A DNA stretch of 60,134 bases, the filler included, from Sphacelaria rigidula (taxonomy: Eukaryota), in the NCBI GenBank assembly GCA_964200075.2. It is 8 parts of 8 records of this genome, joined end to end, with 100 filler letters (N's around TTAATTAATTAA, not from the genome) between each part and the next. Parts side by side here need not be neighbours in the genome. Positions count along the whole stretch, not along the records: positions 30,119 to 37,547 come from CAXNAA020014963.1; 7 more parts are not named here. One strand, 5' to 3'. Shown one piece after another: positions 13,465-57,119 of the stretch (its first letter is position 1; every line of letters starts with the position of its first letter). The notes beneath the pieces were generated by a model. The model saw only the letters and a program-made list of their open reading frames with translations, did not search any database and had not been told where the DNA came from. Made by a program: the position numbers and the translations under genes.

Positions 13465-13880
13465 CAGGTTGGGCAGGTGATGCACTTTTGAATACTCGGG
13501 TGAAATACCCGGGTATCTAGTATACCTACGGCTCTTGTAGATTGGGCACGGCCTCGTATGCTCTACACAATTTTGGGGTAGATTGGGCACGACCTCAAAT
13601 ACTCTACCCAAATCTTGGGTAGGTACTCTCAGCAATACCTCGGGATGGAGTCACCGGGGCATGACCTCAATACCCTCCCACATTTGCGGTAGATCAGGTG
13701 CGACCTCAAATACTTTCCCCAAATATTGGGTGAGCCTTTTCAGTAATACCTGGGTATGGGGTATCACTTGAGTATGACCTCTATACCCTACCCAATTTTG
13801 GGGATGTTGGGTACGATCTACAATACTCTACCCGAATATTGGTTAGTTTGGTTACGATTTCAAAATTTAACCCCAACATG
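13465..13880. repeat. Non-autonomous element built from AATACTCTACCCAAAT-like subrepeats; second copy at about 14464-14745
   Basis: Both copies start GGT(T/C)GG..AGG..ATG.ACTTT.GAATACT.GGGT.AAATAC.CGGGTAT and carry the same internal subrepeats. Confidence 0.65.
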
Positions 13881-15254
13881 ATGGGTGAGGCCATGTCTTC
13901 GCACATCATTTTTCGATGATTAAAAAGGTGCTGTGGACTTGGTTTGAGCAAATTTGTTCATGTCTTGCGAGTTGGGTCCAAATTAAGTTGCAAGCTTTCG
14001 GTCGAAGAGAGACAGTGAAAATCGTGAAGCGGCACTTATTCGCTTGTCCACCGTACAGTACTTGACCGTCTGCGCTTTATCCATGCAGTGCGTCTGAGGG
14101 TGTGTGTGCTTTGTACAGTAGGGTGTGAAAGAGAAGTGGGCAACGTGCAGCTTTTCACTGCCTACACTGTCCATGCGTTTATGCACGTCGTTCACCCTAC
14201 CACGCTGTTCCGTCGCCGATCCCCAATATGTAAAAGATGGTGACGTTTTCGCCAACAAAAAATAAGCACGTCATATCCAATTTCCACTGCAGTGCACCCA
14301 ACTCGTTCTTGAAGTTTCAGGGTTGCGGTGGTAGCTGAGAGGGCTGCATGAGGTTCACATGGTTCTCTGACAGATGGTATCTGGCGTGATGGTCTGCAAG
14401 ATGGGAATCAAGTGCCCCTCCAAACCTTTCCTCCGCACGTTTTCGATCGAAAAAGTCAATTACAGGTCGGGTAGGGCATGTACTTTCGAATACTAGGGTA
14501 AAATACTCGGGTATTCACTCTACCCACACTTGGGGTATATCGGGTACCGCTTCGAATAACCCACTTGAATTGTGGATGGATGGGGTACGACCTCAAACAC
14601 TGTACCCAAATATTGTGTAAGTACCCTCAGTAAAAGCAGAGTATGAAGTATCACTTGGGTATGACCTATGATGCTCCAGCCAAATTTCGGGCAGTTTGGG
14701 TGTCAATTTAGTACTCTTACCAAATTTCGGGTTCTAAGGCCGGATGTTATGGCGAACAGATTACTGGCCCACGGATTGTTCACTTCTGGTACATTTAACC
14801 CACTTTTTGACCCCCAAACATGGAAAATTGTCAACACACGTCTTGGACACTTTGCATCACCCCACAGAGAGGAGCCTAGTATGCTTTTCAGATTCGCTTG
14901 GCTCCGAGGTTTCGAGTTGGCCGCTGAACAAAAAATCGTGCGCAAAAATCTGTGCTTGCCNNNNNNNNNNNNNNNNNNNNNNNNNNNNNNNNNNNNNNNN
15001 NNNNTTAATTAATTAANNNNNNNNNNNNNNNNNNNNNNNNNNNNNNNNNNNNNNNNNNNNCCCAGAAGGCAAAAAAAAAACTGACCTCTGTTCCAAGGGG
15101 TATCCACGCAACATTTGCGCCACTCCACGTGTCTGGGCTGCGCGTACCTGGGTTGCAGCGCTGATAACAAAGCCTAGTGATCGATTCGTACGATTCGAAT
15201 GAAATATACTAAAAGCAAGTAATTTCCAGACGACTCATTGTTTGTCCGACCCTT

Positions 15255-15529
15255 GAATGAGTTGCTTTATTTTCTGCTATCGCCACTTCTAGAGACAGCC
15301 ACGGCTTATACACTGCCTCATGAGTATCTCACCACTCAAACACCACGTAGTGCGATCATCCTCATTGTGCGGAGTTGAGGTTCTCCCACGTCGCACAACA
15401 TGATCTAGCTCGAACACAATTATGGTTATCGCCAAAAAAACGCAAGCGCGCCAAAAAAAAGCGGTAACCTGGTTGCCTAGCTTCCGTAGTGAGTGACGTG
15501 TTTCATAGCGTCATGGCCAACCGACGCCA
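15255..15529 (-). mobile_element. 5' part of the short non-autonomous partner of the poly(C)-associated LINE (family X1)
   Basis: Matches 37770-38152; 5' end TGGCGTCGGTTGGC on the minus strand. Confidence 0.75.
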
Positions 15530-15614
15530 NNNNNNNNNNCGCCCCCCCCACCCCCCCCCGGGGGCGCGCCGCCCCGCCGGGGGGGGGGGGGGGCCGGGGG
15601 GGGGCGGGGGGGGG

Positions 15615-15649
<35 letters not shown>

Positions 15650-15651
<2 letters not shown>

Positions 15652-15712
15652 CGAATTGCTTGCTCGCCTTGGTCGTTTGACCATTGACCACGCATCCCTT
15701 TCGAGACGGAGC
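15650..15712 (-). mobile_element. 5'-truncated LINE 3' end inserted in a G/C run
   Basis: Minus strand reads APSRKGCVVNGQTTKASK then poly(C); G-rich sequence on both sides on the plus strand. Confidence 0.75.
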
Positions 15713-18271
15713 CGGCGGGAGGGGGAGGGATCAGTGAAATGTTCAGTTGTTCAATATGCATTAATGACATGGAAAATGAAATGTCGCCCCAGCTCCTCTC
15801 CTCTCGCTCTTTCCCCCCGTTCTTTTTGCTGTTCGGTTTTCATGTATCTTCACTATTTTCTTTTCTTGTGTAGAACAGCGGATACCAGACTCGTCCCTTG
15901 TAAGAAGATGGATTGAAAGAATGACGTGGGGAAGGAGGAGTGAAGGTATAAAAGTACGCTGCCGTTACTGTATTCCGTGGTAATATTCTTTCCTGAAGCG
16001 GAAGTAGTGTAACACTTCCCTTCCCCCCCCCCCCCTTTCCCTCTTATAATCTGCCCACCTCTATTTCGTTTTTTTCTATCTCTCAGGGACTGTCGCACAC
16101 AAGGAGATAGATGGAGAGTGGCACGAGGAGGATGGAACCGAAAACGTCAACACACCGGTCTAAAAAGTACTCGCAATACGCCTCATTCCTGATGACACTA
16201 TCAGTGGACAAGGACTTCATCAGCGCGCGGGTCTAAGTGGGGCCCAGCCGGCCGGGAGGGGTTGCTGTAGACTTCAATTTTATGGGCTTACGTTGCAACT
16301 GCTCACTGCTTGTATTGTCCTGTGACATTTTTAGTCAACCGTGCGGTGGAAAATAATTACACCAACGCAAGAGATGGAGGAGGGGGGAACAAGAGAACTC
16401 GTACGATTGACCGCGCGTCCTCGAGAGGGTGGAGTAGTGCAGGTCACGTTGAAGCAGCGCACAAGTCAGCGAGAGTTGCCATGTCGTCACTGACCTCATC
16501 AAGTTGGTCAACATTGAGTTCTCAAAGCATAATGATCCCCTCCTTGTACGCCCTTTGTCGAGGAAGATGTGTGGGGGGTTAAGGTACAAATCAGGAACGA
16601 CCGTATGGTCAAGAGGCGTTTGGCTGTTTCAGCTACTTCAGTATGCCACGTATGATTTTGTGTCATGCTGCAGAGGGTTCGATTTGTCTTTTCTCTTCTT
16701 TTTTTTCTTCTTGTTTTCGCGTCGCCAAATTTCGTTGTATTCGCTGCAGTTGTTCTTGTTGCCGTTGTTGCTGCTGCTGCTACCTCTGCAGCTCTTACCG
16801 CCACTCTCGTTTTATGAAGATACTTTTTGCGTGCTTTTTCTTGCCACCGGTGGGAGCTAGAAGGCCTCGGGAGCCGGATTTTTTTTTTTTCCCTTTCAAT
16901 GTTTTTACGACTCGAGGGAGGGGAGCTAACTTGCCTTTCAATTCGTTGTTGTTTTGTTTTGCGTGTTGAGTCGCTCTGTCTTGACCAGACGGCGAGAGAG
17001 GATCTGCCCCCCGTCGACCGACCATCGTGCTCGTTCATTTTACTCTCCCGTTCTGATTCAGTAAATTGTTAACCACTCGAGCGCCTAACAATGTGTCGTT
17101 CACACCTCTCGAACCAGCGTCATTACCTCCGCGTGATATGAGACTGCCGAACATTGTTGTCCATCTGCAGACGCTCAGGCGGGTGGCTCGTCAGAAACGC
17201 CGGTGTGGAGTTCTATATCGTAAAGAGGAGGTGGGACTATGGGGTTGTTAGTTGCGTACTCTCAGGGATGTGGGACATTTCCGTCTTTTAGATATCGACT
17301 GATGGCCGCAACAGTGTAGTCTAAGGGGCGGGGGTGTTCGAATTCGGGTTTGCGTAGTAGGTGCGAACAACACCAATTTTGATCATGCGCCCAGCTGTTC
17401 AGCAGCGACAAACACACGTATTTAGCTGACGTTTCGAAGTTGGGGAGAAGCGACTGGGACGTGCCGGGCAGGGCAGGAGAGGATAGGGTTCCATCCGGTC
17501 CAGCGCATGAAGATGAAGTTTTGTTATGCCGTGGCGTGTGATGCCTCTTCTAGCACCTTTGGTCCCAGCCTCGAGTCATGCGTGGTGTGCTTGCTCGGTT
17601 TCTCGGTGTGAAAACGGCCGGTCGTGCGTAGTGATTGATTATTTTGGAAGAAACGAGATTTCCCAGAAAATTAGTTTTTAAGAGGGTAGGGGAGGGCGGG
17701 GGAGAGTGGGGGGATGCAGTGGGAACTCGGGAAGAAAAGTTGGAGGGAGGAAAATAACCGATAGCACTTCGTGTGCGTCTTTTTTCTCGGACAGAAGGCC
17801 ATCGAACGAACGCGTCCTAATTATTATCCAACAGCAGGAAAAAGTGTTCATTATTTATATTTTGTGCTTGATTCCTCAACTGTATTGCTAAAATTCCTAC
17901 AGTACAAGTGACTGCAGCACACAAGTCTTGAAGTTAGTACATGCATGAACCAGTCACCGGGGGGGGAAATCACACGAACTTTTGAGTGCGGCGGGTAAAG
18001 GTCAGCAGTTCCTGTTCAAACGGAGGAATCGTTGAATCCTTTCATCAGGATATTCGCTGACCAACACCATCACCACTGTTGTCTCATAAGTTGTTTCGGA
18101 ATCGGTGGATACTGTAGGAACGCTTCGTCCACTTGCCACGATAAATAGTTTCCAACTTTGTGGTGTCTGGGCAATGATGGGAATTTCTCACGCGCCGACG
18201 CGTTTCCAGACACCTTCGAAATCACGTGGATTGAGTCTGCCACATTAAATTCCCGCCTCGCCATCGGATAA

Positions 18272-19660: not shown

Positions 19661-20805
19661 AGTGCACGCTCGTCACTTACAGCGCGAGTTCCGTTCTGAC
19701 CAGTAAATAACACGATGACTTAACGCCAGAATGGAAGATGACTACGGTCTACACCTGGAGTACATTCCACACGACAGCTCGGAAAAGGTATCCATCACTA
19801 GATTTAGTGCTGTGGTAAGGATTCGACAGACAGAGTTTAGGGTATATAAAATGATGTGCATGATTGATTGTGCTGACTCCGTTCTTTCCCGAATTCACCG
19901 AGGGTGTTAAACAGCGTGAGACTACTCAACGGCAACATCGGGGGTGCGGTCTCGCAACCCCTCATCCACGATCCTGTGTCCCAGCAGACTCTCGCAAAAC
20001 AAGAGCACAATACCCTATCGGACAAAAAAGCGACACTTACTACCTGGGTTTGCGGAAAACGTTTCCCTGACCACCCCCGACGGGCAGCGGTGAATGTCCC
20101 GGCCGTGACAGGGACTAAGCAACACGGGGGGTCACACTACGGCCAACAGACAATCAAGAAAAGGTTTGTCTGCAGCGCGTCTAGAGTTCAGCTCGTCAGT
20201 TGCGTCCATTTTTCGTAGGGTGTTGCTGTGCTTTTGACAATTGTCGGTTGTCCAGCAATTACATACTGTGTTCCATGTGCCGAAATTCGTGTATGTTAGA
20301 TTGTTCGACGCTTTGACCTTCCCGCGCGGGGATCATGCGTCGAATCCGCACCATTTTCACTCGAAAAATGTATCGAGATCCAGGCGAAGCGCTCTGGTGG
20401 TCAAAGGGTTGAACCCTGACTGCGAACGTCCCAACGAGATCTTCACAGAAGAGTGATGCTGCGATGACCTCCCCTCGAACTAACCTCAAAACTGTCATGA
20501 AGAAAACACCATACAATTATACTCTGGCTGGTTTCAGACTCCATGAAGCCCCTCAGACGGGTGGCATTGGCGAAAACGATCCCAAGCATGAAAGTTTGAA
20601 GCTGCTCGGCGTGCTCGGCTTTTTGTCATTGTGGTTTACATGTTGATTTTGCTTCCTCAAACCAATCATTTTTCTATGGGGAGCTATCGCGGTATCACCC
20701 CTTAGAAGCATTGCGGCATATTGGAATCAAGTGACATCAAACGCTGCGAAGCAATCCATTCGAGTCCATGTTGTAAGCGCAACCGTTTGGGACTTGATCT
20801 TATTA

Positions 20806-21664
20806 GGGCCGTTATTATCGACACAGTTTTTTGGGAGACCGTCCTAATTTTAGCTGTTTTCGCACTTTTTTTCAAACCTTCTCCCAAAATGAAGCGGCGA
20901 GATTTTTTCGCCAAGCCTTCACGTTCGGCGAAAGTCCGATTTTTCGCACCCAGCACAATACTCCGCAGAGCTGCCCTTGACGCACGCCGCGGCGCTCGCA
21001 AGCATGCGAGAAGTAAACCTTGCTAGTGATACCCTGGGCTATGTCGTAGAGTACAAAGCACCGCGGGTTGACGGTGTCTATTTCCTTAGACGGTGTGTAC
21101 CCCGGCAGCGGTGTTGGAGCTGTTGGGGCCGAGCACGGTAGTAGTCGTCGTTTGCAGACACACGCACTTTCGAAGCGAAGAGCAGAAACAATCCAGTTGC
21201 TAGCTACTTACCTGCAGTGCTGCTACGAGGGTACGCTACCGCACCGTCTGAAAAGTGTATAGCTGGTGGTTTGATTGGTTGTATCTACGCATACAACTCA
21301 CAGAAAGCAAGTATGCTGCAATCTATGCACGGGGCTTTCTACAGTCGGTATTTTTACTGATGTGTGCTGCTGCAGCCTCCCGAGAGAAGAGCTGGTCGAT
21401 GGTGCCCTAGCCTATCCGACTGCCCCCCCGTGTCACAGAGAGGCTGTGAGAAATATGTTTACCACAGTTATAAACGCCATACACGGGCAGGTAGCATAAC
21501 CCTGTCCTTTATTTTGCCGGCGAAGGCAAGCAAACGACGAGATCAACACAATCTGTAATGAGATATCTAACAGCAACGGTAGATCTAGATAATAACGAGC
21601 CCTAGGCGAACGCCGTAATTTCGGATCTTCTCCCATTTTGTTTATTTGTCGATAATAAGGGCCC
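20806..21664. mobile_element. PIF/Harbinger MITE, 859 bp
   Basis: GGGCC termini with perfect TTA TSD (20803-20805 and 21665-21667); inverted copy of 8321-9174. Confidence 0.92.
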
Positions 21665-22429
21665 TTATCCCTTGACCTGTTAGAGCCATCCAGATCCACA
21701 CATGCTCATGGTCAGTTAGAGGTCAGCGTCAATAGATATGACTGATTGCATCGTTGTAGGTGACGCCGAGCGCCACAGCATCTGCTTTAGGAACAAATTG
21801 CCCATGCACCTTCAATGCCGGCAAACCGAACGCTATAGCTGAGCAGCAGCTCCTCTTTGCTCACACAAGCACCACCCACCCCCAATGACAAAGGCGTGCA
21901 GGCATTCTGCGGTCCCCTATCCCAGTCCCATTATACGCGGTTGAACCAAAACAATCATTTTCCGGCTTATTCCAACGGTCGAATGTTGGGCATTTGGCGC
22001 CCAAGTGGTTGAATCTCATAACGACCATGAGGCTGAGGCGATGTGGCTACTCCACATGCTTGGTAGGGCACAGTAGTAATTCAGAGAAAGGACAACAAGG
22101 GCTACTTTTCGTCAACGCAAACGAGTGTTAAACGGTACCCCCTCCCTCCCTATCGCGAGATATGGGTCAGGGACGAGCGAGGTGAAACGAGCCAGATCCG
22201 ATTCACGGTGGCGTGAGGGAAGGCGGGCCTTGACGAGAGCGCAATAGAGCCTTTGTGATAGCCTCGTGCTCGCGGCTTAGGCATATGAGTGCTGCTTCGG
22301 TGAATTTTGAAAAATGAGACAACTATGCACCAGTTCTTCATTTTCGCCAATGCAGTAAAAGGGAAGGAACAAAAGCTAGGTCACTAGAGCGACGTGAGAA
22401 CTATGAACACAGTAGTTGCATGAGGCCAT

Positions 22430-22628: not shown

Positions 22629-23251
22629 CATCAGGGATCTCCGGGGCCGTGCGCCTCGCAAGGTGCTATGCCCACAATCCAATTTCCGCTTCCTATCGAT
22701 CATGGCGGACTCGAACACCATATATTTTTCGATTAAATGGCCACTTTATGAACAAGTTGGTGAGGGGTTTGGGTCCTGTTGCAGGTTAAGGGCAACGCCC
22801 GGTTAAGGGCAACGTTTCGCTTAAGGTCAAGCGATCCGGATTAAGGGCAAGCGCTATGGGGAAGCGCACCTGGGTAAGGGGAAGCGTTGCATTCTTCGGC
22901 TGATTCGGGAATATGATGACGATACGTGTATCGCTTCTCCGTCGCTAGGGGCAGATGCCAATATTCAGGGGCGCTTGCCCGTATCCAGATGCGCTCCCCC
23001 CTACCCAGGTGCGCTTCCCCATAGTCAGGGGCGCTCGCCCCTAATTCGGGCCGTTCCCCCCTAACCAGGGGCGCTTCCCCATAGTCAGGGGCGCTTGGTC
23101 TTAATCCGGACCGCTTGCCCTTAAGCGAAAAATTGCCCTTAACCGGGCGTTGCCCTTAACCTGCAACAGGTCCGCCATGATCGATTGGAGGTGGAATTTG
23201 AGTTGTGAACAGAAATGCTTACGAAGGGCGCGGCCCCAGAGACCCCTGATG
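22629..23251. mobile_element. TIR element (~80-bp imperfect TIRs) containing a second TIR element at about 22772-23173
   Basis: Outer CATCAGGG...CCCTGATG; inner CCTGTTGCAGGTTAAGGGCAACGCCCGGTTAAGGGCAA inverted pair with internal GGGCGCTT(G/C)CCC subrepeats. Confidence 0.8.
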
Positions 23252-24080: not shown

Positions 24081-24511
24081 GACGATGACAACCAACGAAC
24101 TTGAGCAATACTTTACGACGAAACTACAGGATACGCCCGGCTACTACACCATCATCGTTTTCGCAAAATAGTGCTCTTTTTCGATGCCGTCGGAAAACGC
24201 GCACGACAACGACAGCAGCGTACGCATCTACTTGCATGAAAGTGTCCCGTTCTAACGAAATAGTAGGGTACGTGTCCGCAGCTATCTAGGCCCGTTGTGG
24301 TTGAAGTTTAATCGATAGCTGCTGATGAACATGGCGAACTAGCCTGATCATGCAAAATCGTTTCCTGAGTTTCCCCAAGCGCAATTTTTCACCTCATTTT
24401 CATCGATTCTCTCAGCTTGAAAAAAACGGTCCTGCCTTGTTTAGTTTATTTTCTCTGCCGCCTTGAATTGCTGCTCCTGATGGAAAAATAAACTCCCGTT
24501 TTCAAACGAAG

Positions 24512-24969
24512 GTGATGGAGGAGGCGATCGTGCAGCAAGGCCCAAACGGTGTGCCGAGAGAAATCAGAAAACAGTACGAGTTCTTCATCTTTCAAGGGAA
24601 GGGAACAGCCACACCGACCTCCAAAGAGGAGACCAAAGAGCCTCCGCCCGCTGAACAGCAACCGGAACCGTCGACACCATCCGACTCTCGCAAGCGCCCG
24701 TCTGTCTCCACCGCAACGGCCGCACAACCGCCATCGCCCGGGCGAGAGACGGTCGCACGTCCGTGCGACGTGGTGCGACCCCGGGATACTCCGCAACGGC
24801 AAGAGAGACCATCGGCAATCAGGGACACGCCTGCAAATGTTCCTGTCTTGGCCGTGGGCATGGTCGACGGCACCACTGCTGGTGATGACATAGGAGAGGA
24901 AACCAAGGGAATACGCCCGAGTGATGCGGACGGGGATCGTCAAGGTGAATTGACCGCTACCTTGACCAG

Positions 24970-25007
<38 letters not shown>

Positions 25008-25561
25008 CTGCTGCTGCCGCGTCTGCTGCTGCTGCTGCCACGGTTACTAACGGGGCTGAAGCGGTTATTAGCGGGGGCGCGGGCGGTGATGGTGACGGCA
25101 CTGCCGCGGTGGATTTTAAATACCAGACTGGAGCGATGGCTATTGTGCGGGAGGAGGGAGAAGGAGAGGAGACGAAGGAGAGTGAAGAGGACGTAGCAGG
25201 GCTGCACGTCATCACCACTTCAGATGTAGCGGCGAACAACCAAGAACCGACGACGCTAGCAATGGCACGGAATCAGCGCAATGCCGACTATCAAACACCG
25301 CTGTCTGGCTTTAATGGAGAACAACGGCAAGAGCCTGAGTCAGATGAAACGCGCGCATGTTTTGGTCCCGAGCCGCAGCAACCAGAGCAAGAACAGCAGG
25401 ACGATCCTGAGGACCTAGAGCGGGAAGGTCGCAGCGGTGATCAATCTGCCGCGTCTTCCTGGGCCTTGGCCGCGCTTACGGACTGCAGCGTGTGCTTGGA
25501 GGCCTACAAGGATGGGGATCGAATCTGTCGGTTGCCGTGCGCACATGCTTTCCACGCTGCG
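24512..25561 (+). CDS. RING-H2 E3 ubiquitin ligase, exon carrying the first five RING ligands (5' end of gene uncertain)
   Basis: AAG|GTG acceptor; 350 open codons with a poly-Ala tract; ends CSVC-X14-CAHAFHAA at phase-0 donor GTGAGA (25562). Confidence 0.88.
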
Positions 25562-26203
25562 GTGAGAGGGGGTCGTGATATTTTGTGTTGGTTGGTTTGA
25601 CTGGTTGATCGATTCGATTGGCTGATTGATTATTGCAGCACACTAATATTTATTGATCCGCTACGAATTCAGCTGTGGTCCACACAACAGGCGTACCCAA
25701 GATAGGTAAAGGGAACACTCGATAAAGGAAACTCGAGAAAGAGGAAATGTGAAGTAAAGAAGTAGAGTGCGCGGGGACCGAACAGGAAAGGACAAGAAAG
25801 GACACGCAAAAAAAACAAAATAAGAGAAGAGAAACGGAATGGAACGGAGCGGAACGGAACGAAACGAAACAACAAAAGAGGATAACAGAAGGATATGGGA
25901 AGGCAAAAAAGAAAGAAACAAACAAAAGTGAAGCAAAGATCTATAATAGTACCGGTCGCGCCTTCGTTTGTCTTGAGCCATTTTCAGACGGAGCTGGAGC
26001 GCGAGACAAGTCAACGCAACGGGCAACCTCGTGGGTATCGTGTACCTGACGCCACGACACCTCGTGGCACCTTGCATCACCCGAGATGTTGCACAGCATA
26101 GATTGAGACGATGATAGTCTCTTCAGCTTACCCCTGCGCCGACACTCCCTCCTCCCTCAACTTACTCGTACAAACCCCAATTCTCCCTCCCCCGCGCGCG
26201 CAG

Positions 26204-27676
26204 TGTATCGACACCTGGCTCAATCAACAACATGTGTGTCCGCAGTGTCGCCACGATCTCCTAGGTCGAGACAACAACGCATACTCTAGCAGTCGACACC
26301 ACCACCACCAATACCACCAGGATATTGCCACCACAAGCAGCATGGACTCGGCCCCATTCTCACCGCTCTACTCGCCGTTGGGAGCCTTACCGAGCTCAAG
26401 GAGGCGGCCGACGCCGTCGATGAGTCGCTTTTCCTCGGGCCTGACAGTCTCCCGGCTCTCTTACACCCCGTACGCTGTCGGCAGCGGCGACGGGTTCGTC
26501 GCTTCGCCGTTGTCCAACTCAACCTTCCTGCCTCTCCGAGGACTGTCGTCGGATCTCATCATGGGCGGAGAGCTGAGAGCGCGAGGCAACACGACCACAT
26601 CCTCCACCGGCGCTACGATTGGCACTCCCCGATTCGGCAGCAGCGCGCTGTACATTTCGGGCAACTCTTCTTCGATTGGCCGCCGCTCCGCAGGGTCTTC
26701 CTACCCGCCGCTACCGCTGTTTTCTCCGCCATTTTCCCTATCGGAGGCAACCGTGTCGACCGAAGCAACCGGCGAGACTCCTCGCGAACACAGGCCGCCG
26801 ACGATACGGCCATGGTCCGGGCGATTCGCTTTTCAAAACAGCATCGTCATGCAATCGGGAAGTCACCATCACCGCCCAGTGCAGCTGCGCTCCACCAGGG
26901 GACGTGTACCCACGCCCCACCGCCCCCGGCGCCAGTCGCGCCAAACGCTGCCATCCCCGGGTCGGAGTCATCCCAACCACCATAACCCCGAGCGCGGCAC
27001 GATGATGCAGCAGACGCCCCCTCCTCTAGGACCAGGGCAGCAGCAACAACAGCAACAGCAACAGCAACAACAACAGCAACAGCAACAGCAACCGCAACCG
27101 CAACAGCAGCCACACCAACAGCAGCAGCAGACCTCTCCGCATGTCTTCTCTTCACAGGACCCGCAGCACCAGCACCAGTACGGGAGGCCGCCGCCGCTTA
27201 CACCGTCATCTCACGGGCACGGTCTACACCACCCAAGCGCTGGCGCCGGAAGCGGCGTCGTCAAAGCCCCGGGGGTGGTTGCGACTACGGCCGGGGACTT
27301 TGTGGTCCTTGGTGGGAACAACAACCAATCTCGTCGTCTGCGCATACCCAGCCTGGGTGGCCGAAGGGCTCGATCCGGCAGCTGCGATGTGATTACATCC
27401 CCCGGTTTTATATTCGGTTCTTCTAGTCCCTTCGGTGCTTCGACCTCCCCCAAGGTCGTGGGGGGAGGGGTAAGGGGAGGAGAACAACGTATAGGCGGCG
27501 AGGTGACAGCGTCCCGGGGCACGCCGATGCGCACGAGGAACCGCTCCAATGGCTCTCATTTTGGGAGTAGCAAGGGATGGTCCGCACCAGTCATGACTGC
27601 CCAATTACGGATGAACTCGTGGGATGATGGTGACGACTACGTTGGGAGTGTCGGCAGCGCGGCTACTAGCAGGTGA
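26204..27676 (+). CDS. RING-H2 E3 ligase, terminal exon
   Basis: CAG|TGT phase-0 acceptor; CIDTWLNQQHVCPQC completes C3H2C3; Ser/Pro-rich tail with poly-Q; stop TGA at 27674-27676. Confidence 0.9.
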   Translation, partial: CIDTWLNQQHVCPQCRHDLLGRDNNAYSSSRHHHHQYHQDIATTSSMDSAPFSPLYSPLGALPSSRRRPTPSMSRFSSGLTVSRLSYTPYAVGSGDGFVASPLSNSTFLPLRGLSSDLIMGGELRARGNTTTSSTGATIGTPRFGSSALYISGNSSSIGRRSAGSSYPPLPLFSPPFSLSEATVSTEATGETPREHRPPTIRPWSGRFAFQNSIVMQSGSHHHRPVQLRSTRGRVPTPHRPRRQSRQTLPSPGRSHPNHHNPERGTMMQQTPPPLGPGQQQQQQQQQQQQQQQQQQPQPQQQPHQQQQQTSPHVFSSQDPQHQHQYGRPPPLTPSSHGHGLHHPSAGAGSGVVKAPGVVATTAGDFVVLGGNNNQSRRLRIPSLGGRRARSGSCDVITSPGFIFGSSSPFGASTSPKVVGGGVRGGEQRIGGEVTASRGTPMRTRNRSNGSHFGSSKGWSAPVMTAQLRMNSWDDGDDYVGSVGSAATSR

Positions 27677-30118: not shown

Positions 30119-30190
30119 CCCGGCTTTGTAGGGATGCGGGGTCAATGGTCTTATGACTATGGTATGCATGATCATGAGTACACCCCCCAC
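30119..30190 (+). mobile_element. 3' end of family X1 followed by a C run (contig edge)
   Basis: GGGATGCGGGGTCAATGGTCTTATGACTATGGTATGCATGATCATGAGTACACCCCCC. Confidence 0.8.
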
Positions 30191-32985: not shown

Positions 32986-34237
32986 TAACATGTTTTTTTT
33001 TTCCTTTTTGGGGGTTGGGCATCGACAAGTTTTTTTTTCCTTTTTTGTTTGAGGCCCGGGTAGCAATACCCCCCCCGAATGATGTACGTGGAGAATTCGG
33101 AGGGAAAACGATCAAAACGGTGTGATTGGCTGTATTCGTGTTTCTGGCCATTTTTCGTACCTTTCTTGGGCAAAAAAGGAGAAGTGATACCTTTTCTAGG
33201 CCATTGCTAAAAAAGAGCGCTTGTAAATGGTGGTCGTGTTGTATGACTGTGCTCTCGTATTGTCGTAGGTGTCAGGATAATTTTTGAACAACGGAACGAA
33301 CAACGGAAGGATCGTCGCCGAGAATAACAACATAGACAGGGGTAACAACCGACGGCGGCAACAGCAATCAACGACAGTAAAACTCCAAGCGTTCCACCAG
33401 CCAGCTATTTCTCTTTTCCACCCGGCTTCCTCTTCCAGGTCCGTAGTAATGCTGCCCAATGTAAGTCCTGCCATTTTTTCGTGATTTTGTTTCGAAATTT
33501 TCGTCCTTTTGGACACGATTTTCGGGGGCAAAGGGAGGGGGAAAGGTGTATGATCATCGATCTCGTATCACTGAAAATGCTTGGGTGGAGCGATACGACT
33601 GTTTCCCCGGTGGCCTTTTGTTTGATGTTCCGTTTGCTCGTTACTGTTGTCACTTTCAGTGACGGTTTTGTTTCTTGTCGCCTGCGCTGTTTGTGGAACC
33701 GTCCGCCATGAGAACGTCTGTCGGGGCACAGGGCGCACTTGCAAATGAACCAAAATGCTAAAGCTTCCCTCCTGCTTGTTTTGACTCCAGCAACACCGCC
33801 CTCGGCACAGCAATTGCTCAGTCATTACGGACTGGTCCAGGGGGAACGCCCAAAATGTCAAGGTTGTGTTCTGTAGGGTACGGTTATGCTCTGTAGGATA
33901 TGATATTCCTCACAGAACTTAGAGATATCGGGTACCGGTATGAAAGTCTTACAGATACTGCACAACTGTCGGGTACCGGTTTTAAAGTTTTTACAGAAAA
34001 TACAGAACTTGTCGATTACGGTACGGTACGGAAAGCCTACAGAAGACCATACCGGCAATCGGGTATTACTTCAAGAGCATACCCGCGCTCCGGGTACGGG
34101 CATACATTTTGTACAGAACTCACAGAACTGTCGGGCAAGGGTATGGGAGGCGTACAAAACTCACAGAAACTGTCGAGCAGGGTTTGGAGGCTGCACATAG
34201 AACCATACCCGGAACCGGGTGTCTTATGAAGAGCATA

Positions 34238-34546
34238 CCTGACACTTTTTACGATAGCCCCCCCAAAAAAGTGCAGGGTGTTGGGAGGCAAAATCTTCAC
34301 GTAAATCGAAATGGGAAAAGCCGAGCACAACGAGAAGCTGGGAATTTCCACGCGTGGGTTCGTTCTAGCCAATGTCGCCAATATGAGGCGCTGTATGGCC
34401 ATTTTTTTCGTGACACTTTTGAGCTGGTATTGGGGGCGTACTCATTTGTTGCTTGCCTTAGTCATTTGACCATTGACCACGCATCCCTTTCGAGACGGAG
34501 CACCAGAGCTGGTATTGGGGGGGGGGCTATCGTAGAAAGTGTCACC
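34238..34546. mobile_element. MITE with TGACACTTT(C/T)TACGATAGC TIRs, carrying a LINE 3'-end insertion; uninterrupted inverted copy at 56803-57066, diverged copy at about 20460-20695
   Basis: Terminal inverted repeats and internal homology among the three copies. Confidence 0.82.
34437..34505 (-). mobile_element. 69-bp 5'-truncated LINE 3' end with 16-bp TSD
   Basis: GAGCTGGTATTGGGGG at 34421-34436 and 34506-34521; insert reads GAPSRKGCVVNGQMTKASNK* on the minus strand. Confidence 0.9.
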
Positions 34547-34779
34547 TGTCCCCGGTAACGGTACGGGAGGCGTACAGAACTCATGGAACTATCGGGTAAG
34601 GGTATGAAAGTCTTACAGAGTTTACGGAACTGTCGGGTACCGATACGAAAGTATCGGGTACGGTAAATACCCGGAAAAATACTCCGGGTATGCAGAGCAC
34701 CCTACAGAACACAACCTTGCAAAATTTATTCCCCACCAGGTACAGAACACAAAATTGACCGGATAAAAACATATTTGGT

Positions 34780-37647: not shown

Positions 37648-38152
37648 AATCACCAAGCGCGAAGCGCGGTGGTGTGTTCGGCGAGTCGCATGAAGGGTGA
37701 GCTGCATCCTGCTAAGATTGTTTGGCCGGAGGCGTACTGATTATCTTGCATTTGGATGACAGCCTCCAATGAGCTTCTTTCATTTTCTGGCATTGCCACT
37801 TCTAGAGACGACCACTTATGATACACTGCCTCATGGGTGTTTCACCATATAAACACTACGTTGCACGATAATCTCCTCTCGCAGAGTTTCGATTCTCCTG
37901 TCCCGTACAGTATGATCCAGCTCGACCACCGTCCTGGTCACCGCATAAACACCGCAAGCGCGCCAGAAACATCAGTAACCTGGTTGCCTACACGGGTGGC
38001 CACCGTGGTGCCTGCAACCTAAAATTTGGACGTTATAACGTTGCACAAGGTCTGTAACGTCCAAATGTGAGGTAACAGGCATCCCTGTGACCACCCGTGT
38101 AGCTTACGCATGGAGTGGCGTGTTTTACAGCGCCATCGCCAACCTACGCCAA
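37648..38152 (-). mobile_element. Family X1 copy with a nested Tc1/mariner MITE
   Basis: Homologous to 15255-15529, 42780-43258 and 45712-45997. Confidence 0.8.
37991..38099. mobile_element. Tc1/mariner (Stowaway-like) hairpin MITE, 109 bp; second copy at 51792-51901
   Basis: TA|CACGGGTGG...CCACCCGTG|TA; removal restores GGTTGCCTAGCTT, seen intact at 15471-15483. Confidence 0.9.
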
Positions 38153-40885: not shown

Positions 40886-41176
40886 TACTTTGAGTCCCCG
40901 GTAACTCAGAACTATATACTCTATCGTATACGGGGGGGAAGAGAATTGGTCCCGTCAGATCCTGGGCTCGTCCCAAGGAAGAGGAGAGCTTCAAAAAGAG
41001 TCAAAAAGGGAACAAGTAAGTGCAGAACCGAGTCGCACGGATGCAAGGTCAGTGATATGTGGCAAATTTCTCAGACCGAGGTTAAGCGGAGAAACGTGAT
41101 GAAACACCTGTTGTGTTCCGTCTCCTCTTTGCGCACCTCTCTCTCGCCTCCTCCCCCCCCCCTCCCCCCCCCCCCA

Positions 41177-41575
41177 GAGGTTTACCAGTCGTCGAAAGGA
41201 GGAGGAAGTAGATGAACAGAACCTTTCCTGTGGCGAAGGAATAGAGAGCAGAAGTCATAAAGTGACAGAATGTGAACTATACAAGGAGGCACGGGACGTG
41301 CTATAGGGGAAAATGCGGGACGTGAACGAAGGTGGCATAAAATCGTTTGATGCATTAGACAGTAGGGAGAAAACGATGGCTATACTAGGAGATGGCTAGA
41401 GACGACGAATAGGACGGGGATAAGATATGTAAACGATTTCGTGTAATGCATGGAAGAAGCGTGATGGGCGCCGGAATGTTGGAGGTGGCTCTATCAGGAG
41501 CAGAAACGGGGCTCCGTCTCGAAAGCGATGCGTGGTCAATGGCCGAACGTCTAGGGCGAGCAATAAATGAGTACG
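41177..41575 (+). mobile_element. LINE ORF2 3' fragment flanked by C runs on both sides
   Basis: RFTSRRKEEEVDEQNLSCGEGIESRSHKVTECELYKEARDVL*GKMRDVNEGGIKSFDALDSREKTMAILGD (decayed C-terminal CCHC); stop TGA at 41568-41570, GTACG, then C run. Confidence 0.82.
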
Positions 41576-41599
41576 CCCCCCCGCCCCCGCCCCCGGACT

Positions 41600-41810
41600 T
41601 GGCGTCGGTTGGCAATGACGCTGTAAAACACGCCACTCACTCTATGAGCTGTATTTTTTGCGCGCTTGTTTCTTTTTCGTTGTAAGCATGACGGTGGTCG
41701 AGCTGTATCATGCTGTTCCAAGTGGGAGAACTCAGTTCCTCGCAAAGTGGATGATCATACAACGTTATGCTTAAATAGCTAGACACCCATGAGGCCGTGT
41801 GATGAGATAA
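41600..41810 (+). mobile_element. 5' part of family X1, directly after the LINE C run
   Basis: Starts TGGCGTCGGTTGGCAATGACGCTGTAAAACACGCCACTC. Confidence 0.75.
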
Positions 41811-42589
41811 TTACAAGGAGTATAAATTTGCTCCGTCATTCTCCAAGTTCAGACATATATATGACCGACGGGTGGAGAAGAATATTCGGAGCGAATACAA
41901 ACGTGCATATCCGAGATGTGCTGATTTCTGACTAGGGAATTCGTTGCGTTTATCAGGTGACGTTTCATCGAGACTGCTCCTGGATGAATAGCTCGAACGT
42001 CAGCGGTAAACGGTGACGTTGATGTGGTCGTTGGCGTGGATGACAGCTGACGATCGGAGCGGATGACGTTTGAGTTTTGGAACATCAGTATGTAAGGAAC
42101 TGTCGGTTGGGGATCGAAAACAAGGTGACCCCTTGGACTCTGTTGTGCTCCCCTGTCAGCAAGCAACACCGTAGAGTTGACACTAATGAAGCTATTTCAT
42201 CGGGGTTGGGGATCAACTCCGGTGACAGCCTTGAGATGCTGCAGTCTCATTAAACCAGACATGCCAGTAGGTCACGTGTTTTGGTTTGGGCGAGTGTACA
42301 ATAAATTCATGTTCACCCTTCACGTTTGATTAGTTGAGCTATGAAATGAGCAAGCCGCTGTTTGAAGTCAAGCGCGTGCATGGGTAAACAAGGCCAAGTT
42401 TGATGATTCCTAGGGACAACGCCTGGGAAATCAGCCTACTTGGTTGGGGATTTAGAGATGTCACATTACAGCAGTGTGTAAGCTGTGGCTGTCTCTGGAA
42501 GTGGCGACACCACAAAATCGTTGGTAGCTGACATCCAAATGCAAGATGCAGAGATGATCAGTACGCTTCGGGCCGAACAATCTTTCAGC

Positions 42590-43258
42590 AGGGTGCAGCT
42601 CACCCTTCCTGCGACTCGCCGAACATATCGCTTCGCGCTAGGAGATTTGATTGCGAGCCTGGTCCGGCGAAACCCCCGGCGTGCTCCGTCCTGGCTTTGC
42701 AGGGACGAGACGTTAACGGTCATATGACTACGGCATGCAAGCTCATTATCACACCCCCACTCCCCTTTAAGGGTAAGCGTTGGGTGGTAACGACGCTGAA
42801 AATATGCCACTCGCTGTGTGAGCTAGGCAACCAGGGTATCACCTCTATTCTCGCTTGCGTTCTTGTAACGCAGACCGTGATGGTGAGTAATATCAAGCTG
42901 TGGGGGGCGGAGAGCCTAAATTCGGCGTGATGGGAATGTTCGTCCTGCGTAGTGTTATTATGGTAAGACTCTCATGTCGCAGTGAAACCCGTGGCTGTCT
43001 CTGGGAGGGGCGATATCAGAAAACGAAGCACCTCATTGAAGGCTGTCATCCATACGCAAGGCCATTAGTATTCTTCGGGCCTAAACTCTTAGCACGATGC
43101 ACTTCACTCGTCACGCGGCTCGCCAAAGGCATCACGGCGCTTCGCGCTGCGTGATAACGAGCCTGGTGGTCCGCCGAAATCGTGGCATACTCCGTCCCGA
43201 CTTGGTAGCAACGCGAGGCCAATGAGCTTTCGACTGCGATATACATCATGGGTATCCC
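42590..43258 (+). mobile_element. Two family X1 copies head to tail (3' part 42590-42760; diverged full copy about 42780-43258)
   Basis: 3' end ...CATTATCACACCCCC followed by a 5' end GCGTTGGGTGGTAACGACGCTGAAAATATGCCACTC. Confidence 0.7.
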
Positions 43259-45003: not shown

Positions 45004-45470
45004 GCCCCCCCCCCCCCCCCCCCAATGGTCAATGGTCTTACGACTATGGTATGCATGATCATGAGTACACGCCCCCNNNNNNNNNNNNNNNNNNNNNNNN
45101 NNNNNNNNNNNNNNNNNNNNTTAATTAATTAANNNNNNNNNNNNNNNNNNNNNNNNNNNNNNNNNNNNNNNNNNNNCACACCCCCCTTCCAATCTGGGTG
45201 TGGGGTCAAAGGTCACCCCCCAAAGGAAAAAAAAAAATGGGTACCCCCCCCCCCCCCCCCCTCCCTTCCATTTCTGAAGTACAGTGGAGGGCCCACCATA
45301 ACGGGGTCAAACCGCAAGTCACCTGTCACGCGTCCAATCCGCCATGCTAATATCGAGCAATATCTAGTACACCGATACTGTGCAAATGCAAATGCCGGGC
45401 TGACACCCCACCGCCCTCGCCCCTTCTACGCCCTCGACTTCTGCATTCGCATTTTTTTGGCCAACTCCAG

Positions 45471-45681
45471 GGCCGATGTGGACGTGCAGCTGTACCCGGA
45501 CTACTTGTCCTTGTGCCCCACGCCGATGAGCCTGGACATGGTGGAACGGCGACTAGGCGGGGCGGAGGACAGGAACAGGGAATACCTCAATCATGGGGAG
45601 TTCGTCCGCGACATGAGGCTCATCTTCGCAAACGGAATGGTGTACAACGATCCCATTCGGTGCACCAACGAGCACGACAAG
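45471..45681 (+). CDS. Bromodomain protein, internal exon
   Basis: CCAG acceptor and AAG|GTGTGA donor; YPDYLSLCPTPMSLDMVERRL...EFVRDMRLIFANGMVYN with the conserved Tyr-Asn. Confidence 0.88.
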
Positions 45682-45711
45682 GTGTGACTTTGGTGTGAGC
45701 TATGGAGGGGG

Positions 45712-45997
45712 GGGGTGTACTGATGATCTTGCATACCGTCGTCGTGTATGACCATCGATCTCGCATTCCTACAAAGCCGGGACGAAGCACGCCGGGCTTT
45801 CGCCGGGCCAGGCTCGCAGTTAATCACAATGCGCGAAGCGCCGTGAAGTGTTTGGCGAGTCGCATGAAGTGTGAGCTGCGTCCTTGAGCCTACTGACTAT
45901 CCTGCATTTGGACGACAGCCTTTAACGAGTTGCTTTATTTTCTGGTTTCGCCACTTCCAGAGAAAGGCGGCCACGGGTTCCACACTGCCTCATGGAT
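45712..45997 (-). mobile_element. 5'-truncated family X1 copy in the bromodomain intron
   Basis: G run then GTGTACTGATGATC on the plus strand; another G run at the opposite flank (46008-46031). Confidence 0.75.
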
Positions 45998-52555: not shown

Positions 52556-52804
52556 TGCCCGAAAAATGAGAAGGCATTTTGAAATGAGAATCAACCGCTC
52601 CCCGGNNNNNNNNNNNNNNNNNNNNNNNNNNNNNNNNNNNNNNNNNNNNTTAATTAATTAANNNNNNNNNNNNNNNNNNNNNNNNNNNNNNNNNNNNNNN
52701 NNNNNATGTAGGAGCCGTCGAGTGTGGCTAAAGGGCTGTTCGTTCGGTGGTCAAACGCACCTGGTGGAGCCCTAAGAAAGTCCCCCCCCCCCCCCCCCCC
52801 CTCC

Positions 52805-52842
52805 AATGGTCGAACGACTAAGGCAAGCAACAAATGAGTACG
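52805..52842 (+). mobile_element. 38-bp LINE 3' end with CCCCCCTCC duplication
   Basis: CCCCCCTCC at 52796-52804 and 52843-52851 flank ...AAGGCAAGCAACAAATGAGTACG. Confidence 0.8.
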
Positions 52843-52849
52843 CCCCCCT

Positions 52850-54420
52850 CCGAACCCCCTCCCGCTCCCCTGCTTGTGGACGTTCGTCCCTTCCGCGTTT
52901 TCCCTATCCATGCGTACTCTTCAACTTTTCATCTTATTTCTGCTCCTCTTTCTCCTATGGCTCATGGATCCTTTACTATATCGAGGTCGTATTAACTCAC
53001 TTGTTGCGCTATATTTTCTATTTGGCGCCTGTCCTTTCCGAATCATTATCTGCTCTCGCGTTGCCTGCTGTTCTCCCTTCGTCGCTTTTACTTTTAATTT
53101 CCCTTGCTTGGTTGTACTTCCTGTTTCTGCTTTGGTCTTTGCCTATTTGCTTCGGGGCGCTAGTCCTCTCCCCTTCCCATTCCGGACACGTACCTGTTCC
53201 TGCCTCTCTCCCCCTCCGTTTACCCGTGGACCGCGTCCTAGATTTGTTGCTCCATTAACCATGCATACTCTCCACCCTACTCTTCTAGCCCATGCCGACA
53301 CCTTACTTGTCTCTATCCTTTCCCACTCCTTGCTCCCGCTCTGCATTAGCGTGGCTTGCAAGTTTTCCCCCTCCTTTCTACTTTTCTTCTTGCCAAACAG
53401 TATAGTCCAACTCCATCGCATTTCATTTCAACTCAATTCTAGTCATATCGCTACGAACTCTGAATACCGGCACTACTAGTACTTCACCCCCCCACTCTTT
53501 TTACTCCACCATCCGCCCTTCCATACCGTCTCTTTCGTTTTTGGTATTGGTGGAATGTAGAAAACGTACTGGGACATCCCAATCCTAGCACTTTTTGGGA
53601 GTCTGATGCCTTTTCGTTCTATTACTGGCTCACCGACACTAAATATTGACTCCAACACAAGTTCGTAACCTGAAGCCAAGTTTAACACCTTTGACACAAG
53701 TACCCCAAGTTTGCGCCAGGTGATCTTCATGGTAAACCATCTAGGCACCCCACGATCGTATCTTCTATCTTTTTGCCCCGCTGCTGTACTGGTTACTCTC
53801 CTCCAGGTAGGTAGGTCATTTTCACCGTGTAAGGTTCATGAACGGCTTGCATGACACAAGGTCTTACTCACATCGGGACGTTCCGTACATCACTTTTCCC
53901 ACTACGTGTACGGTTTTCCATGGGCCGCTACTGCACTAATGATTCCGAGTAGACTTTCGCTGGCGAACGCTTGGCCAACGATTCCCCCACACTTTGTACC
54001 AGGTTCTATCCTTCAAGATATCAAGAAGTCTACGTATCGCTTGGCGCTCTTTCTCGTAGGTCATGCGGTCGTTCGTTCGTAAGGTGTTTGTTTCATGAGC
54101 GCGGTAGGTCTCGACGTTTATGTCATGCATCATCCACTCCATCCCTTCACCGGGCGCCTTTTGCACCTAATGTAGGAAATTTCAGGAAAATGGCTGACTA
54201 GATGTCCACCGCCTCCTGGAAACCGGTAAGGTGTTACGGGTATCTCACCACGGGACCCCAACCTCCATGTGCATTTAACGAGGAGAGGGTGATGACGGGA
54301 TTGTTATGTATTTTCTATTCTCGATTGGCATGTAAGGCGGTCAACCTTCACATTATTACTTTCTTGTCGAGATTTTGGTTTTCTTCTTGTCTTACCTTTG
54401 TTGTGTTGTAGCGGGAGGAG
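52850..54420 (-). mobile_element. Decayed LINE 5' half: esterase (SGNH)-like ORF1 and start of the APE endonuclease
   Basis: Fragments PGEGMEWM..LRTND and DAVH..NG (SGNH-like blocks); DLDIV...EEYAWIGKTRKG (APE N-terminus); many stops and frameshifts. Confidence 0.6.
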
Positions 54421-54476
54421 TCTCGGTTATTTCCCGTCTCGATATGGGAAAGTATATATGTTTTTCTCGCTGTTGA

Positions 54477-55150
54477 CGTCTGTATCCGGGCTGTGCTATG
54501 GTAGGTTAACGAAAAAGGAGGGTTAGCTTATATATTTCATGTCTAGATCCAGGCTGTATCACAGTAGGTGAGGGCAAAAGGAGGGATAGATCCGTCATTC
54601 CATGTCTATGTCCGGGCTGTGTTATGGTAGGTTAGAGGAAAATCAGGGTTAGCTTCTCCATTTCATGTCTATGTCCGGGCTGTGTTATGGTAGTTCAAAG
54701 AAAAAAAATGGTTAACATCTCTATTTCATGTCTATATCCGGGCTGTGTTATGGTAGGGTAAAGAAAAAGGAGGGGTAGCTTCGCCATTCCATGTCTATAT
54801 CCGGGCTGTGTTATGGTAGGTTACAGAAAAAGGATGGTTAGCTTGGTCATTTCATGTCTATGTCCAGATAATCAATCAATCAATCAATCAATTCATGTCT
54901 ATGTCCAGGCTTTCTTATGGTAGGTTATAGAAAAAGGATGGTTAGCTTCTCCATTCCATGTCTATTTCCGGGTTGTGATGGTAGGTTAAAGAAAAAAGGT
55001 GGTTAGCTTCTTCATTTCATGTCTATGTCCGGGCTGTGTTATCGTAGGTTGAAGAACAAGGATGGTCAGTTTCTCCATTCCTTCTCTATGTCCGGGCTGT
55101 GTTAAGGTAACATAAAACAAAAAACAGCTTTGTTATATCATGTCTATACC
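54477..55150. repeat. 63-bp tandem minisatellite, about 10.5 units
   Basis: ATGTCTA recurs at 54539, 54602, 54665, 54728, 54791, 54854 (63-bp period), then 54895, 54958, 55019. Confidence 0.95.
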
Positions 55151-55398
55151 CATCCTGTGTGTTTCTGGGGAGAAACAAAGTTGGTTATGTCGGTTTTTGC
55201 ATGTCCATTGTGTTTGCCGGTCGGGGACATTTTTTTGTCTAGTGGCAGTTTATGGTACAGGTACGGTGACAGTCTGTACATTTTTTTCTAGGTTACATGG
55301 TGGCTTGATTTACAGCGTCGTTGCCACTCGACGCCAACCCAAGAGTCTGGGGGTGAGGTGTGAGAGGGAAAGGGGGGGCGGGGGGAATGCGGCATTAT

Positions 55399-55686
55399 CC
55401 GGTAAAGTTCAAATAATGGAAGTGGGAAGAAGAGGAGTTATCAATCGTAGACCAGTATACATACCTATGCTTGGCGGCCTCTCTCTTAGGTGGTGACCTC
55501 AGACGGCGAAACAGGAAGGGGGTGTGATATGCATGTGAGGGGTTTCGTGTCATGTATGGGGAAAACGTAATGGTCGCCCAAACGCTGGGGATGCCTCTAT
55601 TAGGAGTAGAAGCGGTACTCCGCCTTGAAAGGGTTACATGGTCAATGGTCAAATAACTTGAAGCAAGCAACAAATAAATGGGTATA
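55399..55686 (+). mobile_element. Internally deleted LINE fragment (RT-distal piece fused to the 3' end)
   Basis: WKWEEEELSIVDQYTYL joined to RW*PQTAKQEG and a 3' end homologous to 41400-41575. Confidence 0.7.
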
Positions 55687-56505: not shown

Positions 56506-57119
56506 CATACAGATTTGGATTCTGACTAATGCCGAGATAGCCCCCCCACAAAAAGTGCACCGGAGACCGTTCGACAAACCGGCTGCGATCCCACCCTTGG
56601 GCTCGTCTGCAGCGATTTCACCCACATAAGAGGCGTGTATAGCAGCCCGAAATCAGCTATAATGCCCAAATGAGTCACGTCGTGCAGCACGAAACCAGCT
56701 CGAACGGCGTTTATGATCATCGCCTCCGTGCACTTTTTTGGCCGGTTCGGAGGGGGGCTATCTCGGCAGCAGTCTTCTGATGCCCGAAATTTTGGGGTCC
56801 TAGGTGACACTTTCTACGATAGCCCCCCCCCCCCCAAACCAGCCGGAAAGTGTCACGAAAAGAGTGACCATTTACTATAGCGCCTGATGTTTGAGTTCAG
56901 GCTGCATAAAGCGCCTCATATGGGCGACGTTGGCGTGAACGAACCCAAGCGTGGGAATCCCCAGCTGCTCGTTGTGCTCGGCTTTTTCCATTTCGATTTA
57001 CGTCAAGATTGCGCCTCCCCCAACCAGGCACTTTCGTGGGGAGGTGCTATCGCAGAAAGTGTCAGGTGAATACAAAATTCTGGAGAATTCGGGTTCTTGA
57101 CAATAACTGCAAGATTTCG

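Follow-up and report, generated by a model that had tools for sequence, protein, structure and literature searches.

Can a LINE end in, and insert into, runs of C instead of poly(A) and T-rich sites? This question is raised by a 69-bp LINE fragment that interrupts a MITE-like element at 34437-34505 of the stretch of DNA analysed here, and that is flanked by a duplication which begins inside a C run. The targeting of other simple repeats by LINEs is known. APE-type LINEs that insert into microsatellites include Waldo, Mino, Kibi, Koshi and Dong, whose targets are (ACAY)n, (AC)n, (TC)n, (TTC)n and TAA repeats, respectively, and the mechanism is thought to be based on the cleavage preference of the endonuclease; no mononucleotide tract is among the targets of the microsatellite LINEs listed in the sections of this source that are used here (PMC3812793). 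The target consensus of L1, which has a poly(A) tail, is given in the same sections as 5'-TTAAAA-3' (PMC3812793). A C homopolymer as a LINE target was not found described in our literature searches: these returned no LINE with a C tail or a C-run target, the term 'poly(C)' itself not being queryable, and nothing on point was returned by the searches on Ectocarpus LINEs, or on brown alga combined with LINE and homopolymer. A search of one preprint (bioRxiv 10.64898/2025.12.07.692804) for LINE and poly terms gave no passage.

The window, by which we mean the whole stretch of 60,134 bases, consists of eight unrelated pieces of ~7.43 kb each, joined by artificial spacers of the form N44 + TTAATTAATTAA + N44, and because of this artificial joining, repeats that recur in different pieces are repeats between unlinked loci. 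Five further N10 gaps lie inside the window. Its G+C content is ~50%, and it contains 37 runs of C or G of at least 8 bases, versus 22 of A or T. Three of the 5 N10 gaps and three of the 16 piece ends lie in or adjoin C/G runs, and the lengths of the runs are uncertain, since the draft assembly has gaps at such places. The sample is to be read as 60 kb plus one outside locus, not as a whole genome. This outside locus came from a scan in which 22 bases of the window served as the query against a genome collection, and which matched one contig, CBRFFM010000043.1 (1-1662; L001). It carries an intact 3' part of the element, with 515 open codons followed by TGA GTACG C13, and in addition the head of a second element. 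The contig is filed under an uncultured-bacterium MAG though the element is eukaryotic, which is almost certainly due to contamination of the bin, and it is thus an instance of a eukaryotic LINE carried by a public contig with a bacterial label.

The original prediction listed five fragments that share one end on four independent contigs. All of them are present, and are located in pieces 3, 5, 6 and 8 of the window (Table 1). The three clearest ones, i.e. those at 34437-34505 (-), 41177-41575 (+) and 52805-52842 (+), end as predicted, in ...AAA TGA GTACG followed by C5-C7. Counting a further tail described below, fragments of 38, 48, 64, 69 and 399 bp share the same end. When the 1360-residue protein P0154, a relative described below, was used as the query, tblastn located, within the window, five pieces of the C-terminal region and a single 5' part; the latter (53497-52869) showed no support for a continuation beyond the 38-bp insertion. 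The copy at 34437 is young, as it is identical to L001 over the whole aligned length, whereas the old copy at 55384-55686 matches L001 at 147/184 positions; the corresponding values are 43/45 for the copy at 52805, and 59/68 and 312/404 for the remaining copies. The copy at 41177-41575 contains four in-frame stops. Directly before the C20 run that holds the 38-bp copy, a possible decayed older tail was observed at 52729-52781 (+) (nhmmer E = 8.7; tblastn E = 1.4), which, if real, would make this a tail-in-tail insertion. We also observed about ten tandem copies of a 63-bp unit at 54464-55141, between the LINE ORF start (~53524) and a head on the minus strand (55300-55345); by analogy with mouse L1, these units may be promoter monomers of the 5' UTR.

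Table 1. Coordinates of the LINE copies, related elements, duplications and spacers in the window.
Feature	Position	Strand	Remarks
Target-site duplication, left copy, 16 bp	34421-34436	.	starts with C5 on the element's strand; ends in G5 on the plus strand
Target-site duplication, right copy, 16 bp	34506-34521	.	enters the G10 run at 34517-34526
Empty site in paralogous MITE	56794-56843	-	single copy of the motif, uninterrupted 13-base run (56823-56835)
Young 69-bp 3' terminal fragment, subfamily A	34437-34505	-	last 68 nt and next 5 C: 73/73 identical to L001
38-bp 3' terminal fragment, subfamily A	52805-52842	+	43/45 aligned bases as in L001; insertion within a C20 run
399-bp 5'-truncated copy, subfamily A	41177-41575	+	Cys/His knuckle to stop codon, aa 1228-1360 of P0154
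64-bp 3' fragment, subfamily A, last 10 bases deviant	15650-15713	-	on its own strand followed by C34, then further C runs (15579-15649)
Old, internally deleted copy	55384-55686	+	aa 964-985 joined to aa 1285-1355; 3' flank C-rich but broken
5' part of LINE ORF	52869-53497	-	aa 10-234 of P0154: N-terminal region and start of APE domain
Subfamily B tail, cut by piece start	30119-30183	+	ends ...GAGTACAC, then C5-A-C5
48-bp subfamily B tail	45024-45071	+	between C19 run (45005-45023) and C5 at piece end
Non-autonomous element, body and B-type tail	42471-42754	+	head at 41599-41800, ~670 bp of other DNA between
Non-autonomous element, 5'-truncated, B tail	45716-45988	-	followed by C9
Non-autonomous element, old copy	42982-43258	+	head ~42785; no C run left at 3' end
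Conserved 5' head	41599-41800	+	starts 4 bases after the C-rich run trailing the copy 41177-41575
Same head elsewhere	15310-15529 (-), 37823-38152 (-), ~42785 (+), 55300-55345 (-)		
Head motif	55300-55345	-	upstream of 63-bp tandem repeats and LINE ORF start; preceded by C6-G-C7 and C5 runs
Spacers	7431-7530, then six further at 14961, 22490, 30019, 37548, 45077, 52606		

The reading frame at 41178-41567 encodes a Cys/His knuckle and ends in ...ASNK, followed by a TGA five bases before the end of the element. Its 130-residue translation, with X at the four stops, gave 439 protein matches at E <=1e-3 in a representative library, mostly short gene models. Longer forms were then sought, which yielded P0154, P0153 and P0155. 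P0154 (1360 aa) contains Exo_endo_phos (170-392, 3.4e-12), Exo_endo_phos_2 (279-414) and RVT_1 (740-989, E = 9.8e-31) domains as well as the C-terminal Cys/His knuckle, and ends at the same ...ASNK stop as the copies in the window; the C-terminus ...VVNGQMTKASNK is found in P0154, P0153, P0155 and P0157. The proposed identity of the fragments as a LINE, with its frame and stop, is thus borne out by the 439 relatives, including this 1360-aa ORF with APE and RT domains. In the window itself, the start of the APE domain (aa 177-234) is found at 53042-52869, and the RT is represented by aa 964-985 only. Taken with its relatives, the family combines a non-LTR-type RT, an N-terminal AP endonuclease, a fixed 3' end, variable 5' truncation and target-site duplications with the lack of terminal repeats, as is characteristic of APE-type LINEs. 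Among named relatives, unnamed-product proteins of Ectocarpus sp. CCAP 1310/34 come closest, with 54-71% identity; large clusters of unnamed proteins from long contigs (37-47%) and fish and ctenophore LINE proteins (23-29%) are more distant. Physarum polycephalum, considered at first as the source in view of the fragmented and homopolymer-rich assembly (PMC4758236; PMC5006619), was discarded on account of these Ectocarpus proteins; a 720-aa host ORF used as a query matched unnamed proteins only. The best matches in the PDB were L1 ORF2p (6.6e-21) and R2 (8.8e-20), which do not separate the two classes. Six-frame Pfam searches of pieces 6 and 8 found no domain. We also ran Pfam over 151 ORFs, of which 20 were chosen by eye among the ORFs of at least 150 aa and 131 were taken from the 150 longest of the 209 ORFs of at least 85 aa; in these 151 ORFs only Ty3/gypsy domains, a RING finger, a bromodomain, and weak, sub-threshold TFIIA and zf-rbx1 matches in a Gln-rich ORF were found, so that the window holds no RT of this LINE beyond the 22 residues mentioned above.

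In addition to the first five fragments, at least five more tails were found, which form a sister subfamily, termed B, and end in ...GAGTACAC (...GTACAC). The B tails belong to a non-autonomous partner of ~500 bp, which is non-coding, and which has its first ~45 nt (the head) and its last ~70 nt in common with the LINE. The 3' end of the partner is homologous to that of the LINE, as seen in the alignments of A and B tails, and a single nhmmer profile finds both. Heads start 1 to 34 bases after a C run. At four places, i.e. 41575/41599, 42754/42785, ~38160/38152 and in L001, tail and head form a chain, in which the run is the end of the preceding copy. Inspection by eye shows a 6-bp stem that the A and B tails have in common, though with different loops, and the RNAalifold consensus of the tails consists of one 5-pair hairpin with no covariation or compensatory change. 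In predicted stability, the 3' ends do not surpass shuffled sequences (z from -1.1 to +0.7), so that a structured recognition element is unsupported, and a search of the whole window against Rfam at gathering thresholds gave 0 matches. The protein end in this region, on the other hand, is well conserved: GCVVNG, followed by 6-8 residues and the stop, is kept even in relatives at 37% identity, and G(C/R)VVNG with 4-8 further residues stands at the very C-terminus of P0158, P0160, P0161, P0165, P0167, P0168 and P0171 (37-54% identity). The conserved G(C/R)VVNG overlaps the conserved GGTCAATGGTC box of the DNA and may reflect a dual constraint; its retention in distant relatives points to a constraint on the last 40 nt, which may act on the RNA, the protein or the two together. 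Furthermore, all cis signals must sit inside the coding sequence, because the 3' UTR is 5 nt long.

The LINE ends five bases after its stop codon (TGA GTACG), and a C run directly adjoins this end. Among ten robust tails, defined by an nhmmer E below 1e-3 and with element ends set by eye, eight have at least 4 C within 0-2 bases of the 3' end, and none is followed by a G run; at a background frequency of 0.0167 for positions with at least 4 C, the binomial P for 8/10 is 2.6e-13. The two tails that lack a C run (55686 and 43258) are both old. A residues are absent from every 3' junction, so that reverse transcription did not start in a poly(A) tail, and the tail does not come from polyadenylation. 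The same arrangement is reflected in the relatives at other loci. The C-terminal motif is found in 28 of the 150 matches listed (out of 439), 10 of which end there, while the other 18 read through a mutated stop, and among these listed matches 16 of the 18 read-through proteins contain two or more prolines among the eight residues that follow, with a background of 4.8% proline. A proline-rich continuation means C-rich DNA after the stop, as the translation of GTA-C(G)-Cn gives.

The perfect 16-bp duplication that had been proposed for the copy at 34437 is present (34421-34436 = 34506-34521) and starts inside a C run. No other exact 16-mer in the window, simple and tandem repeats aside, is repeated at a distance of 20-150 bases, and ~0.002 such repeats are expected in random sequence. 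The CCCCCCTCC duplication at the 52805 copy, also proposed earlier, measures 9 bp (52796-52804 / 52843-52851) and likewise starts inside a C run. The copy at 41177-41575 has C runs on either side as described before, which read C10-T-C12 upstream (41153-41175) and C7-G-C5-G-C5 downstream (41576-41594). Together with the variable 5' truncation and the shared 3' end, the 16- and 9-bp duplications agree with the signature of target-primed reverse transcription (TPRT) that had been noted. C runs form the 5' flank at 34517-34526, 41153-41175, 45005-45023 and 52782-52801, and the sequence from 15714 onward is rich in C, so that all 5 copies with a readable 5' junction have a C run or a C-rich flank there. 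The counter-case is the 5' junction at ~55384, which, on the element's own strand, borders on a G run. C runs are present on both sides of four copies. A duplication with a unique part was found in two copies only, and the older copies as well as those of subfamily B showed no convincing duplication.

The state of the target before insertion can be seen in the paralogous MITE (~56794-57060), which had been proposed as the empty site and proves to be one: the two flanks of the 34437 copy overlap by the duplicated motif on one uninterrupted sequence, and the 69-bp insert has no counterpart there (local alignment score 7). Because this empty site carries a 13-base run, the C run predates the insertion at 34437. 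The MITE-like family has members at 34243-34553, 56794-57060 and ~20450-20720, with the terminal inverted repeats GGTGACACTTTCTACGATAG, each followed inward by a C/G run, and it is this internal run that the LINE copy at 34437 struck. The third, diverged paralog (~20410-20720) has no long run at that place. As in LINEs that target simple repeats, we thus find a single orientation and a pre-existing repeat at the empty site, the latter at one empty site in a 60-kb sample.

We consider it likely that these copies represent an APE-type LINE family that is targeted to C runs in one orientation, is inserted by TPRT from a nick in the G strand, and is accompanied by the ~500-bp non-autonomous partner. 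The sense strand of the element is always the C strand. In TPRT, the first nick is made on the opposite strand, at the position where the duplication has its left edge; since this edge lies inside the run, the nick would have been made inside the G run, leaving a primer that ends in G. The endonuclease would cut a (dG)n.(dC)n tract on its G strand, and from the 3' end set free in this way, which ends in G, cDNA synthesis would begin precisely where GTAC(G) meets the C run in the RNA. The register is probably held by pairing with C residues of the transcript downstream of GTACG, which may be a tail or the read-through of the resident C run. Transcripts would continue from the master copy into the C run that follows it, and these C residues could then pair with the G primer, a step that is modelled on R1Bm and SART1. 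On the C strand, the cut would follow at a distance of 9-16 or more bases. Both sides of each insertion would then carry a C run, i.e. new targets, from which the tail-to-head chains would follow. Of the earlier proposal of a ~5-nt 3' UTR and a C-rich tail priming on nicked G runs, the 5-nt 3' UTR (in L001, TGA GTACG C13) and the targeting of C runs stand; the priming by a C tail is conjectural, as the downstream C at every junction can be read as duplication alone, and duplication and tail are not separable.

Three other explanations of the junctions have to be considered. The element might have a C tail without any preference for its target and insert anywhere, as L1 does with its poly(A), in which case the adjoining C runs would be the tails of this or of earlier copies. 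The C runs after 8/10 tails fit this idea, and so do the chains, in which the run in front of a copy is in some cases the end of an older one, and perhaps the possible decayed tail that adjoins the C20 run at 52782, at the E values given above. We nevertheless regard it as improbable, because the 13-base run at the MITE empty site is part of the MITE and has no LINE sequence nearby, both clear duplications start inside a run, and C runs or C-rich sequence adjoin all 5 of the readable 5' junctions. The clean duplications of 16 and 9 bp are also hard to reconcile with a capture process, in which LINE cDNA or RNA was patched into breaks at fragile C/G tracts independently of the endonuclease, with no target-specific nicking. 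Endonuclease-independent L1 insertions are typically without duplications and often 3'-truncated, whereas here the 3' end is precise in independent copies and the orientation is strict, with 0/10 tails followed by a G run. Although the inserts are very short (38-69 bp) and the runs coincide with assembly gaps, as would fit difficult DNA, we give such capture very little credence.

The remaining explanation, that the C/G runs are read artefacts of the poly-G type or mis-assemblies and that their link with the repeat is spurious, draws on the coincidence of runs with N10 gaps and piece ends given above, and on the fact that short reads do not suffice to measure runs of 30-53 bases. An artefact would hardly split a run into 5 + 10 around a duplicated unique sequence while a 13-base run is found at the same place in the paralog, nor place C13 at the same junction on an independent public contig (L001), and it would account neither for the proline codons that continue 16/18 read-through gene models at other loci, among the matches listed, nor for the fixed orientation. 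Its probability is in our view close to negligible, and we retain the reading of a LINE family that targets C runs.

It had further been proposed that the family might generate the many C/G runs in this DNA, and in this respect the prediction is not supported. Among 20 run loci of at least 9 nt, 13 have no recognisable adjoining copy, and 7 abut one. A profile of the 10 tails, run with nhmmer --max over the window, added one further copy (43189-43246) and gave only weak matches elsewhere; in this search no copy was found beside the runs at 16023, 22431, 22595, 29042, 29935, 31103, 31246, 50005, 50147 and 56023. A stronger version, which we put forward only tentatively and hold to be rather doubtful, is that the element multiplies its own target: every insertion, even a dead one of 40-70 bp, would turn one C run into two, because the duplication starts inside the run, and the cDNA may add C. 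The family and its partner would then be a main driver of the long poly(C/G) tracts that are scattered over this genome and interrupt its assemblies, reverse transcription would start via pairing of G primer and C tail, and the endonuclease would respond to the unusual helix of (dG)n tracts or to their capacity to form G-quadruplexes, and not to a particular sequence. If this were true, the family would be a natural non-A/T counterpart to L1 for the study of tail-primer pairing at the start of TPRT.

The family resembles Waldo, Mino, Kibi and Koshi in being an APE-type LINE with a fixed orientation in a simple repeat and with repeat-flanked copies, but differs from them in that its target is a mononucleotide C/G tract, as far as those elements are described in the cited sections (PMC3812793). 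Moreover, in contrast to these four, it seems to have a strong preference more than an exact site, since the duplications reach 3-11 bases past the run, and while their hosts are insects or fish, the present host is apparently a brown alga. As in mammalian L1, where a T-rich primer meets poly(A), a 3' homopolymer faces the complementary homopolymer at the nick, the duplication starts with the homopolymer so that tail and duplication are indistinguishable, and variable 5' truncation, variable duplication length, and an APE, an RT and a C-terminal Cys/His motif are shared. Unlike in L1, the homopolymer is C/G, not A/T, and the 3' UTR has 5 nt; the poly(A) or A-rich tail and the T-rich/A-rich target of the L1 clade were not found, given that no junction contains A and that a C run follows 8/10 tails.

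In R1Bm and SART1/TRAS1, the read-through transcript pairs with the nicked target. Reverse transcription in the present family would likewise start precisely at the end of the element, and help by pairing between downstream RNA and target would be a further likeness. The target of R1Bm and SART1/TRAS1 is a unique or telomeric sequence, whereas here C residues would pair with a G run, without register. The eel UnaL2 and UnaSINE1 are a LINE/SINE pair with a shared 3' tail and 'stringent' recognition, and similarly the partner described here shares the last ~70 nt of the LINE (a small stem, the GGTCAATGGTC box and ...GTAC) and also ends in a C run. Unlike UnaSINE1, it shares the first ~45 nt of the LINE as well, so that it looks like a deletion derivative and not like a pol III SINE.

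A LINE at C/G homopolymers would offer a natural system in which to ask whether pairing between the nicked target and the RNA 3' end sets the start of reverse transcription. In practical terms, the association of the element with long C/G runs goes some way towards accounting for gaps and contig ends in such assemblies, and annotators should be cautious about gene models that read through into poly-proline, as these are LINE tails.

The window also contains sequences of other kinds. Piece 1 carries a Ty3/gypsy retrotransposon (656-6553, +), whose gag, RT and RNase H domains and whose zinc-binding, core and C-terminal integrase domains are spread over several frames, and which shows the source to be a eukaryote. 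Another dispersed repeat, of ~650 bp, is common to 8318-8961 and 21016-21667 (pieces 2 and 3), inverted and with 91-95% identity, and two short dispersed or tandem repeat families (41-111 nt) with GGGTAC-rich units lie at 13531-14694 and 33926-34652. A minisatellite at 22960-23130, with a period of ~20 nt and GGGGCGCTTCCCCCATAGTCA-like units, is the sole other long exact repeat within 150 bases. Host-gene-like ORFs, all on the plus strand, encode a bromodomain (45178-45684), a RING finger (24467-25600) and a Gln-rich protein with CAG/CAA repeats (26102-27676), and the open frame of the bromodomain ORF crosses a decayed tail and a C18 run (45196-45261), which is translated as prolines.
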